Source: Eledone cirrhosa
Taxonomy: Eukaryota
Assembly: GCA_964016885.1 (NCBI GenBank)
Contig: OZ024743.1
Span: forward strand, 261,268,001-261,332,000
Direction: 5' to 3'
DNA: 64,000 nt
Below, in pieces: positions 22,609 through 62,923 of this stretch (positions are counted from its first letter, which is position 1; every line of letters starts with the position of its first letter). The notes below the pieces were generated by a model. It had not been told where the DNA came from, made no database searches, and saw only the letters and a list, made by a program, of their open reading frames with translations. The position numbers were made by a program, and so were the translations under genes.

Positions 22609-22757
22609 ATATATATTTAAAGGGTAAACAAGGTTCAATGAATAAATCAAAGAATGAGTTTTACAATAGATTGGAAGCACTCAACAGCAATGGTTTTCCT
22701 GAGTTATTAATATTAATTCAAAATATTAACAAAAATAGACATTCGTGTGATCAAGTA

Positions 22758-22824
22758 TATTTTATTATACATATTTCAGAGGTACTGAGCTATCTTCAAC
22801 AGTACGTCCTCATCAGATAAAATA
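22758..22824 (-). ncRNA. Type I hammerhead ribozyme (mirror copy)
   Basis: Reverse-complement copy of 22920-22986 in the left palindrome arm. Confidence 0.8.
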
Positions 22825-22919
22825 AGATGATGCATGACATACCCTGACTTAGTAGATGGTTAAGATTCAGTCGTGGTATCTTAACCATCTACTAAGTCAG
22901 GGTATGTCATGCAGCATCT

Positions 22920-22986
22920 TATTTTATCTGATGAGGACGTACTGTTGAAGATAGCTCAGTACCTCTGAAATATGTATAATAAAATA
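22920..22986 (+). ncRNA. Type I hammerhead ribozyme
   Basis: tattttat-CTGATGA-ggacgtactg[12-nt loop]cagtacctct-GAAA-tatgta-TA-ataaaata. Stem I is 8 bp, stem II is 9/10 pairs, stem III is minimal. Confidence 0.8.
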
Positions 22987-23159
22987 TACTTGATCACACG
23001 AATGTCTATTTTTGTTAATATTTTGAATTAATATATATATATATCTACATTTTCTAAGAATAAATATATTTATATTTGTGAGCAGCAACAATACTTTCTG
23101 CAGCAGTTAAATGGTACCAGACCCAGGTTTTGTCACACCGATGTGTGTGTGTGTGTGAT

Positions 23160-23400
23160 GTGCAATGAGGATGACTGCTGAGTAAAGAAGTGCCAAGAAA
23201 TGCCAGTAGAAGGAAGACGCAGTAGAGGAAGACCACGAAAAACATGGGTAGAGGTTGTGAGAGCAGACCTCAGATCGCTGAAGATCACGGAGGAGATGAC
23301 GAAGGACTGTGACAAGTGGAAAGATGCTGTGCTGAATAGAACCCATTCCACCCTTGCAAGCAGGGAAAAGCGGACGTAAAATGATGATGATGATGATGAT
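23160..23400 (+). mobile_element. RTE-clade LINE 3' end
   Basis: Translates VKKCQEMPVEGRRSRGRPRKTWVEVVRADLRSLKITEEMTKDCDKWKDAV, the typical RTE C-terminus, followed by a (GAT)n tail. Confidence 0.8.
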
Positions 23401-23875
23401 ATAAATATGGATTGAGGGTGAGGCTGTGTGGTTACTGATAACGAGTGTCACCTTATCTTCTAACACTATATGTGGAAATCTTTTATGGTGAGTTTCTGCA
23501 AGGAAAAAGACCACAGCATAGGCCTAAGAAAAAGTACTAAGATTGTATTAAGGAAAATGTGAAATATCTGGGTTTTGATATAGATCAATAGTAAAAGCAA
23601 GCTATTGATCATAATATACAGAAAAAGACAATTAAATCACTTGTATGTTTACCATAATGGCAGGGAATCAGATGGAGGCCAGTTAGTGTTGAAAATGGTT
23701 AGATCAATTGTACTGCAAAACTCCTAGAACCTTGATCTCTTTTCATTCCTTATACCATATCCATAACCTTGATTTACACTCGTGACCATCAAGGTGTTGA
23801 CTTTTAATTATACTCTGTTAACGTTTTTTTATTATAAATGACTAAATCTGTTTATTTTTTATTCTAATCCTTCAG

Positions 23876-23990
23876 ATCTCCAATATTAGTACTCCAATGA
23901 ATGTACAACACCATTGTCATGCCACAGATGCAGATAGTGCTGAGAAAATACTAAACAGTCTAATGACTAACCAATTCCAAACTACGGGAG
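23876..23990 (+). CDS. SYNJ1: Synaptojanin-like gene exon with CRIB-like motif
   Basis: ccttcag| acceptor and GAG|GTTGGT donor, phase 0 to 1. Encodes ISNISTPMNVQHHCHATDADSAEKILNSLMTNQFQTTG. Confidence 0.65.
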
Positions 23991-24179
23991 GTTGGTATAG
24001 GCTCTTTTTTCAGTTTCATTGTCGTTGCTGTTATTCCTTTATTTTTTTAATTGGAGTAAAGAATCTTCAAATAACATTTGTTCTTCATCCCAATGAAGAA
24101 AAAAGTCGGGATTGTTACACAAAGAGGAAATTGTCCCTTGTCATTGTTTTGGCTCTTTCATGACCATATAAAGCTATAA

Positions 24180-24425
24180 TCTCAATGAAAAAACATACAG
24201 TCCACCTTGTAGGTGGTCATACTAGTACAAAAATGAAAAAGCACCCAGTCCATGCTGTAATCTGGTTGGCATTAGGAAGAGCATCCAGCTGTAGCAACCA
24301 AGCTAGAAACAGATCTGTATGAGCAAGACATGGTTACCTGCCCTGGCTAGTCTCATTACATGACAGCTCATCAAACTCATGCAAGCATAGAATATAGAAG
24401 TTAAACGATGATGATGATGATTATT
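24180..24425 (+). mobile_element. SINE 3' part with (GAT)n tail
   Basis: ggttggcattaggaagagcatccagctgtag...gttaaacgatgatgatg, as in the other copies. Confidence 0.6.
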
Positions 24426-61200: not shown

Positions 61201-61333
61201 TATATATATGTATATATATGTGTATGTATATATGTAGGAGGTGAGTTTTATTGTAGTACAATAAAGCAATGCAGATATTGATTTAAAACTGCACTATCCA
61301 CAAGTGTTTTTTAGCCTTCATATCATGTCCTCA

Positions 61334-61404
61334 TGTTTTATCTGATGAAAACACAAATATTATTGCATGATGATGTTTGTTTTTGAAATGCGCATAATAA
61401 AATA
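61334..61404 (+). ncRNA. Type I hammerhead ribozyme
   Basis: tgttttat-CTGATGA-aaac acaaatatta..tgatgtttgt tttt-GAAA-TGCGCA-TA-ataaaata. Stem III is a palindromic hexamer. Confidence 0.8.
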
Positions 61405-62328
61405 CATGGAACTCCTTTAACCATCTTTTGATCTTATATATTATATGTATATATATATGTATATGTATATATGTATATGTATATATATATGTATATGTAT
61501 ATGTATATGTATATGTATATATATATGTATATATATATGTATATATATATATGTATATATATATGTATATATGTATATGTATATATATATGTATATGTAT
61601 ATATATATGTATATATATATATACACACACATATATACATATATATACACACACATATATACATACACCTACATATACACACATATATACATATATATAT
61701 ATATATATATATATATATAATATACATACATACATACATACATACACACATATATATATATATACATATACATACATACATACTTATATACACATATATA
61801 TATATATATACATATATATATACATATATATATATATATGCATATATATACATATACATATATATATATACACATACACACATATATATATATATATACA
61901 CATACACATATATACACACATATATAAATAAATAAATACACACACAGAGAGAACCATACAAACACATACACGCATATATATACCCCCCACCCCACGCACA
62001 CACACTCACACATATATATACATATACACACACATATATATATACACATATATATATATATATATATATATATATACACACACATATACATATATGTGTA
62101 CACATACACATATATATACATACATACATACATATATATATATATACACATACAAATAAATAAGTACTCAATAAATATATGCATATACACAGGCCCATAA
62201 AAACAGCTCTACAGGCAGAAAATGCAGATAGGTAAGAGGTACTCACATAACCATAGTGGCCGTATTTCAGGTTGAGGGGGGGGGGGGGGGGAGAAGGAGG
62301 TATAGGGGCCAATAGGAGGAGGTCGTTT

Positions 62329-62613
62329 TTAGCCATCGGGCTTTAACACTGTTTTAAAGTATTTGAAAGTTGCAAGGTTCTTGTGCATGCAGTTCTGGCA
62401 GTGTTCAGAGAGTTTGTTCAGTAGCGGGCCCTTGGCGAATAAAATTTTGTAGCTTTCTGAGATACAAAGGTCGCAGCCCTTGTGTCCTCCGTTGTAATAG
62501 CGCGCTTTCTGGAGTATTTTCCATTTAAGCGTGAAGGGGGTGGAGTTCCTTTTGAGGTCCCAAACATAGGAGGCGAGTGTTGTCTGGTTTGATTTGTCCG
62601 GTCTTCTGAAGAA
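62329..62613 (-). pseudogene. Penelope-like element GIY-YIG endonuclease C-terminal region (Naiad-type as recalled), 5'-truncated
   Basis: Open frame without a start codon, absent from the ORF track: [94 protein letters not shown]. Shows the L..Y.W.LK, CxLC..E, LLN..SE and CxH motifs. Confidence 0.75.
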
Positions 62614-62644
62614 TTAGCTTTTAATGAATTCCCTTTTCTATCAA

Positions 62645-62706
62645 CCAATGGCCTACACCCATCCCACTCCCTACCCTCTCCTACCACTTGAAGAGACCTA
62701 TAAATA
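62645..62706 (+). promoter_or_regulatory. Putative Pol II promoter of the terminal repeat (CCAAT and TATA boxes)
   Basis: CCAAT at 62645 and TATAAATA at 62699-62706, 30 nt upstream of hammerhead stem I. Confidence 0.45.
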
Positions 62707-62728
62707 CCATACTTATTTTTTGATACCC

Positions 62729-62779
62729 AGATTCCTGATGATTTCTAAAGAATGAAACAGTTCTAGTCCTGTAGAATCT
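62729..62779 (+). ncRNA. Type I hammerhead ribozyme
   Basis: agattc-CTGATGA-tttctaaagaat-GAAA-cag[ttctagtc]ctg-TA-gaatct. Stem I is 6 bp perfect, stem III has a GUA triplet, stem II is short and weak. Confidence 0.75.
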
Positions 62780-62923
62780 CATCTATATTAAAACTTTTAT
62801 ACTCTGCAATGTATTGAGTACCTTACTTACTGTGGTTACCTCCGATTCAACCCGGAATAACGTATATATATATATATATATATATATATATATATATATA
62901 TATATATATATACATATATATAC

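Follow-up and report, generated by a model that had tools for sequence, protein, structure and literature searches.

Penelope-like elements (PLEs) of the Hydra clade are defined by a C-terminal endonuclease with CxxC and CxH, by DKT and RWK motifs, a CxCx5C linker, canonical hammerhead ribozymes and insertion into (TA)n, and the published clade includes an Octopus family, Hydra-1_Obim (PMC8557442). Recently active Penelope-like families were also reported for Octopus vulgaris (PMC13282606). Here we describe a stretch of 64,000 nt of Eledone cirrhosa (assembly GCA_964016885.1, contig OZ024743.1, positions 261,268,001 to 261,332,000, forward strand), referred to as the window, in which short modules with hammerhead motifs lie at TA runs. 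Like the Hydra-clade PLEs, the window has a C-terminal CxxC/CxH endonuclease, insertions at (TA)n, a canonical type I hammerhead close to the 3' end, and inverted 5'-truncated copies with a tail at one end (PMC8557442). We propose, with a probability of about 0.78, that the modules are 5'-truncated 3' ends of several Hydra-clade PLE families, in which a twin hairpin sets two start points for the reverse transcriptase (RT). Published work already covers the clade with its ribozymes, its insertion at TA, its inverted copies and its tails on one side; the twin bulged hairpin is apparently an undescribed cis-element, and the elements apparently new families of a known clade.

The tails are about 70-140 nt long here, compared with 30-40 nt in published Hydra elements, and the hairpin of the window has ACTC/GAGT and inserts of up to 188 nt. 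The Hydra main text mentions neither a twin hairpin nor an end register (PMC8557442). The words 'hairpin' and 'stem-loop' are absent from that main text (Craig, PMC8557442). A description of the twin hairpin was not found in the literature searched, although most of the Craig supplementary figures, the supplement on the Poseidon element PAc, Repbase, Dfam and subscription papers could hold one. By eye, hairpin letters can be seen in the published consensus ends of the Amil and Ajap elements, and one locus outside the window (L082) carries the Hydra-2_Amil hammerhead (PMC8557442).

Three further systems are relevant. Poseidon PAc of Anolis cuts both strands at AT-rich DNA and starts RT internally at two sites, which delimit the tail; RNA downstream of these starts is required, a dimer is predicted and ribozyme cleavage is dispensable in vitro (PMC11167929). 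It thus resembles the window in the two RT starts flanking the tail, the AT-rich double-strand cleavage and the predicted dimer. However, its starts lie inside the open reading frame (ORF) in one AC-rich stem-loop, whereas here two similar non-coding hairpins occur, one past each end (PMC11167929). The protein-binding motif of PAc was left unmapped in the parts of that single in vitro study considered here (PMC11167929). Penelope of Adineta vaga shares head-to-head inverted copies, junction palindromes and a tail that one arm may carry with the window, but its inverted copies were explained by self-priming on an antisense template, unlike our proposal (PMC3846280). Non-LTR (long terminal repeat) retrozymes share the type I hammerhead and, with our module H, a non-coding unit, but their tandem arrays are missing here.

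Endonuclease fragment and hammerhead motifs

The sole coding fragment of endonuclease type within the window (62332..62607, minus strand) encodes the last 92 residues of an endonuclease of Hydra type and ends at a stop codon. Its signature residues are C45, C48, E51, N64, C73 and H75, with CxxC before E and CxH after N. A search at E<=0.001 gave 2,256 relatives, and CxxC..E is common to 147 of the top 150. The fragment is 45% identical to residues 636-712 of a 727-aa RT-endonuclease (P0038), which corresponds to a C-terminal position. Neither the fragment nor any of five relatives was assigned a relevant family by Pfam; look-alike clusters of a shorter relative (P0044) carry HTH_animal, GIY-YIG and RVT_1 families on some members. 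No relatives were found in viral contigs, and a protein word-index search and a PDB sequence search returned nothing.

Loci outside the window (n=94) were fetched by alignment of nine relatives and comprise 80 of 463 metagenome matches and all 14 genome matches; each of the 94 matches the window fragment. Frames of 704-722 aa with DK[TS], YRDD, the CxCx5C linker and CRH were present in six of nine loci examined. The CxCx5C linker and DK[TS] occur in 6/6 of these full frames and RWK in 4/6; these motifs lie outside the part of the protein that the window retains. The part of the domain that bears on a further Hydra trait, absence of the CCHH motif, is likewise missing from the fragment. A sense hammerhead follows the ORF in 47 of the 69 loci with downstream room (antisense in 2/69), and one locus (L093) contains inverted pairs clustered at TA runs. 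The initial annotation had assigned the modules to several Penelope-like families; this assignment stands, and the endonuclease signature narrows it to the Hydra clade, from which the modules, as judged from sequence, very probably originate. An origin from Naiad PLEs was rejected, as the endonuclease is C-terminal (not N-terminal) and the hammerheads are canonical. Ends of differing Hydra families were also seen directly adjacent to each other (L023, 392-570; L092, 2840-3070; L093, 2840-4030), suggesting insertion at AT-rich ends of earlier elements. Several Hydra-type elements were on contigs filed as bacterial metagenome-assembled genomes (L081-L094), likely through contamination by host-animal DNA.

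Four clean type I hammerheads had been named in the window, and a strict descriptor returned exactly these four, with core C3 at 22928(+), 22816(-), 61342(+) and 62735(+) (the numbers given initially, 22920+, 22758-, 61334+ and 62729+, are stem I ends). Local dinucleotide shuffles (n=300) contained no motif in 294 cases and one in 6, a mean of 0.02 compared with 4 observed, so that the motif frequency clearly exceeds that of shuffled sequence. Since 22816(-) and 22928(+) belong to opposite arms of a single inverted insertion (156/157 identical), the intact hammerheads count as three independent motifs. These putative canonical ribozymes near the 3' end are intact in modules A, I and the plus arm of J, although the motif at 62735 has a stem II of just 3 bp. 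Stem III is palindromic or self-pairing in the window motifs, which is expected of dimeric metazoan hammerheads (PMC4209133).

The four partial hammerheads claimed in addition are truncated or mutated copies. The motif at 28615(+) and its mirror at 28483(-) in module B are point-damaged, with a damaged GAAA in each, and the majority letter at 28429 among contigs of the same species makes the core intact (130,190 of 130,216 depth). Those at 32189 (module C) and 40502 (module G) keep the GAAA half alone, the copy being cut within stem II. At 56677 (module H) there are two candidate cores, both degenerate and both without a well-formed stem I, and this call is ambiguous. It had also been stated that stem II differs between copies while pairing is kept. 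The stems II do differ, but because the copies come from different families this is not covariation between homologous copies.

The tail hairpin and the ends of the elements

Downstream of the ribozyme lies a bulged hairpin composed of RCTC, a variable stem-loop, a 3' bulge of 2 nt, GAGY and ACT. Of 47 outside loci, 20 have it 25-85 nt past the predicted cut, and many of the remaining loci stop just short of it. When sites were anchored by sequence only, the hairpin partner was present at 57/65. The inner cells are paired in 106 of 126 cases in 42 distinct copies from the 94 outside loci, compared with 66.5 after shuffling and 29-69 after sliding. In the hairpin alignment 92.3% of the cells pair, both sides have changed in 4/8 pairs, and RNAalifold recovers the same fold. 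Covariation was 0.351 versus 0.116, a value reached in 0/500 shuffles, although relatedness of the copies can inflate such tests. Nine outside loci contain two hairpins, H1 and H2, 60-83 nt apart and followed by an ATG.

The modules of the window mostly have ACTC/GAGT, which is a double change of the outer hairpin pair. A model built from outside loci only ranks modules C and J first (E 0.026 and 0.032) and module K third (E 1.8). A hairpin descriptor written post hoc gave six matches in the window versus a mean of 0.37, one of which lies outside any module, and 10 of the 14 TTGAGY anchors past 20904 are inside modules.

The ends of the elements stand in register with these hairpins. Of 76 hammerhead-side matches, 40 pass through H1, 2 reach contig ends and 34 stop; 27 of the latter end 1-6 nt upstream of H1, three at 13-14 nt and four elsewhere. 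With an H1-H2 reference, 10 of 26 matches pass through and all 16 stops lie 2-15 nt upstream of H2. In the window, the short ends of A, C, D and G are 4-5 nt upstream of H1 and that of B is 0-7 nt before it, the range reflecting alternative readings of the TA match. Tail-out inverted pairs of the same family always combine one long and one short end, 7/7 outside and 5/5 in the window (12/12; module J is excluded from this count).

All 16 called ends lie within 5 nt of (TA)3+, compared with 7.8% of positions in 21000-36500, although the ends were called partly by the TA run, which makes the comparison partly circular, and the undefined long ends of C and D were omitted. Within this limit, the targeting of (TA)n claimed by the initial annotation was supported. 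Inverted 5'-truncated copies or a pseudo-LTR with a tail at one end, a PLE trait, are represented by five inverted pairs and one pseudo-LTR of 79 nt, in line with the inverted truncated copies expected from the outset. The endonuclease fragment, the tail hairpin, modules D and K and the rule of one long and one short end are additions to what had been noted.

Proposed insertion mechanism and alternatives

The following mechanism could account for these ends. A tandem or read-through RNA would contain, in this order, the ORF, the hammerhead, H1, H2 and the next ORF. A dimer of the RT-endonuclease would bind H1 and H2, one subunit per hairpin, and nick both strands of a (TA)n tract. One cDNA would then be primed just upstream of each hairpin: if each hairpin docks one subunit, one cDNA would begin before H1 and the other before H2. 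Both cDNAs would stop early and be joined 5'-to-5' via short self-complementary stretches, often ribozyme stems (stem II in modules C and G, stem III in D), so that each insertion would have one long and one short end. We infer that the long/short rule fits two separately primed cDNAs better than antisense self-priming. That the hairpins are determinants of the RT start sites is a reading that we somewhat favor. We are evenly divided on the fullest version, in which the twin hairpin, from copies in marine-invertebrate metagenomes to this genome, would dock two RT-endonuclease subunits, fix both RT starts and explain the PLE tail and the long/short pairs, with module H a non-autonomous parasite arising from extra hairpin copies.

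If true, the twin hairpin would give a telomerase-related retroelement its first mapped cis-acting start signal. The hairpin bears on the choice of internal start sites by PLEs and on their one-end tail, and a covarying motif of ~30 nt near both classes of end offers a handle for direct mutational testing. The hairpin can also be used to search for truncated, non-autonomous Hydra copies that have neither ORF nor ribozyme, and such copies appear to be abundant in the genome.

Several observations weigh against the reading of the modules as Hydra-clade ends with hairpin-set starts. Three of the four outer hairpin pairs are invariant and therefore indicate conservation of sequence, not of structure. 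The outside model misses A, B, D, G and H, because of mutations or long inserts, and the hairpins of these five modules rest on the descriptor written after viewing the window. H2 was seen in the window solely in module H, with an insert of 188 nt. Seven of the 34 stops in the short-end test fall elsewhere than 1-6 nt before H1, and the end counts contain repeat views of single insertions (L006 twice; L069/71/75; L003/05; L046/47; L064/77/79). The window has no RT, and module J alone is tied to a protein; module J is itself a misfit, its arms being diverged homologs with the 3' half of H1 on both. Rfam hammerhead models score none of the motifs, either in a gathering-threshold scan of the window or in focused scans of A and J. 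A rough construction places the hammerhead fold 4-7 kcal/mol above the fold predicted to have minimum energy.

The Rfam result could imply that the motifs arise by chance folding of palindromic AT-rich DNA or belong to foldback elements resembling MITEs (miniature inverted-repeat transposable elements), and modules E and F are indeed similar palindromes that contain neither ribozyme nor hairpin. However, the shuffle counts given above and the majority letters, which repair the core and stems, largely refute chance folding, and the module arms are asymmetric and tail-out; we regard this possibility as negligible. The same elements could instead use the hairpin on DNA or in expression, as an endonuclease site, internal promoter or translation signal, with the ends set by UA-rich matches to the nicked TA target. 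Recognition of plasmid DNA by the Drosophila Penelope endonuclease depended on the tail (work cited in PMC11167929), H2 lies shortly upstream of an ATG and the ends are located in AT-rich letters. Yet the inner hairpin pairs covary as the sequence shifts, which fits a folded single strand, and the offset from end to hairpin is alike in unrelated families and in the window. We consider a role of the hairpin on DNA or in expression unlikely, though it is the main rival.

The initial annotation also connected the modules to retrozymes, which here would mean non-LTR retrozymes replicating via tandem or circular RNA. Type I hammerheads with a palindromic stem III, the non-coding module H, which needs a template longer than the unit, and the proposal that retrozymes are PLE derivatives (bioRxiv 10.64898/2026.07.22.740005) are all compatible with this. 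The definition of retrozymes requires tandem units (bioRxiv 10.64898/2026.07.22.740005). The copies in the window are inverted pairs or solos, one of which bears an ORF end, and the retrozyme connection was not upheld because head-to-tail hammerhead arrays (at least two units, each with a hammerhead) were not found in the window; it now seems improbable. Even less probable is the idea that the TA seas were made by the telomerase-like RT of the element or by its repeated insertions. Every called end adjoins a TA run and the RTs of PLEs are related to telomerase RT, but the suggestion that modules help to build the TA seas is unsupported, as there are 3 modules in the 23-kb sea versus 5 in 14.6 kb outside it (22.6-37.2 kb). 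Moreover, the pure TA runs are just 6-16 nt long at 14 of 16 ends, fragments of short and long interspersed nuclear element (SINE and LINE) type adjoin TA as well, and the sea contains kilobase-long strand-polar TA/TG blocks, which we read as local slippage. As to whether the families are undescribed, the published Hydra clade shows the traits seen here and includes an Octopus family, but the window hammerheads differ from the Hydra-1_Obim row (compared by eye; PMC8557442), and for this reason the window families look other than Hydra-1_Obim.

Modules of the window and their setting

The summed depth of same-species contigs was compared for positions 21500-34000 of the window (modules G, H, I, J and K are outside that range) and is not a copy number; it was taken solely as a sign of many copies. 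Run X1 likely comes from the same species as the window, judging from unique stretches of 384-974 nt that match with 0-1 differing letters, at a depth of 2.4-5.9. Same-species contigs pile up ~10^4-fold over three modules, and the depths of A (180,261 at 22849) and B (130,216 at 28429, 72,193 at 28770) bear out the multi-copy status that had been expected.

Module A (22617..23030) is a tail-out inverted pair with arms at 22710-22866 and 22878-23034 and intact hammerheads at 22816(-) and 22928(+). Its long end is on the left, with H1 at 22704-22679(-), and its short end on the right. The majority letter at 22700 (45,548 of 79,083) restores the first inner pair of this H1. A rare letter at 22849 recurs in the other arm at its mirror position, 22895, as would be compatible with a single template or with conversion afterwards. 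Pieces of module A were found in runs of two other organisms, with 3-12 differing letters over 89-170 nt. Module B (28363..28810) is an inverted pair with point-damaged hammerheads at 28483(-) and 28615(+), a short end on the left and a long end on the right with H1 at 28741-28776. Here the majority letters restore the core (GAAA; 28429), stem I (28610) and the first inner pair of H1 (28770).

Module C (32116..32219) is an inverted pair whose arms meet in a hairpin of 14 bp that is likely stem II, and retains the GAAA half only; its short end is on the right and its long end is not defined. Its H1 (32139-32116, minus strand) is the best match of outside model R1 (18.5 bits). Module D (32571..32815), absent from the initial annotation, is an inverted pair in which the stem III palindrome is the likely cut point, with a short end on the left, an approximate long end and H1 at 32677-32737(+) with a 51-nt insert. 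The contig depth of C and D is inseparable from that of the neighboring SINE. Module K (37135..37236, minus strand), likewise new, is a solo end fragment between TA runs with a GCTC/GAGC hairpin at 37196-37171 (11.1 bits). Module G (40362..40720) is an inverted pair with its arms linked by an imperfect hairpin (probably stem II), followed by GAAA and a palindromic stem III; the short end is on the left, and the long end on the right has H1 at 40591-40671 with a 71-nt insert.

Module H (56469..57556, minus strand) is a non-coding unit of ~1,010 nt, in which a direct repeat of 79 nt (pseudo-LTR, 98.7%) holds the tail. It has further large-loop hairpin anchors at 57471/57279 and 57208/57029, its hammerhead is degenerate and ambiguous, its longest stop-free stretch is 59 codons and its long end is 6 nt upstream of an ACTC. 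It is likely a non-autonomous derivative. Positions 56960-57480 contain two diverged repeats, each with ACTC at the start and TTGAGTTCTT at the close, and two splice-donor-like GGTAAG sites lie closer to the ribozyme. Module I (61237..61436, plus strand) is a single copy with a short end; its hammerhead is intact, with the core at 61342, a cut predicted after 61396 and a palindromic stem III. The plus arm of module J (62608..62862) has a hammerhead core at 62735, a predicted cut after 62773 and H1 at 62801-62819, and its long end adjoins a 50-nt TA run (outside-model score 18.1 bits). On the minus arm, the endonuclease ORF is followed by a degenerate 3' untranslated region (62150..62331, minus strand), a diverged homolog of the opposite arm with only the 3' half of H1; a hammerhead there was rejected, as none was convincing or intact. 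The arms meet at an 11-nt palindrome, and module J is either two insertions or a mixed-family event.

Two asymmetric inverted pairs at TA runs, 32821-33280 and 33300-33752, contain neither a hammerhead nor a bulged hairpin and possibly belong to other PLE clades; contig depth was 104,021 at 33056 in the former and low (37-167) in the latter. Modules E and F were rejected as Naiad ends, as by eye they are unlike Octopus Naiad ends. Flanking DNA is duplicated in inward-facing inverted orientation around insertion clusters at TA runs, at 22164-22253/23045-23134 (89/90 nt) and 31885-31915/33960-33995 (about 27 nt). These duplicates may be by-products of double-strand insertion.

The window is animal DNA with intron and exon-like sequence at 21-36 kb. 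An exon-like terminal frame (25649-26255, plus strand) closes in proline-rich repeats, and the corresponding host gene appears to hold module A in an intron further upstream. The degenerate TA/TG microsatellite sea (38939..61938), with its strand-polar blocks and a gap of 200 N at 49000-49199, hosts modules G, H and I. SINE-like copies at 22281-22608 and 32234-32559 (96% identical), presumably octopus-like in look, adjoin TA runs, as do C-terminal fragments of LINE RTs at 57775-58215 and 62990-63745, which we take to be CR1-like. An Rfam scan of the whole window by E-value gave mostly TA-rich microRNA models among the best 150 of 956 matches. At the gathering threshold the sole match was U5 small nuclear RNA (3500-3617, plus strand; score 43.3 versus gathering 40) whose 3' stem is broken, probably a pseudogene or a repeat headed by U5. 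Lastly, a unit of 21 bp is repeated in 667 copies over ~14 kb (6677-20903), and the opening 240 nt of this array read open in one frame as TTTINT repeats.

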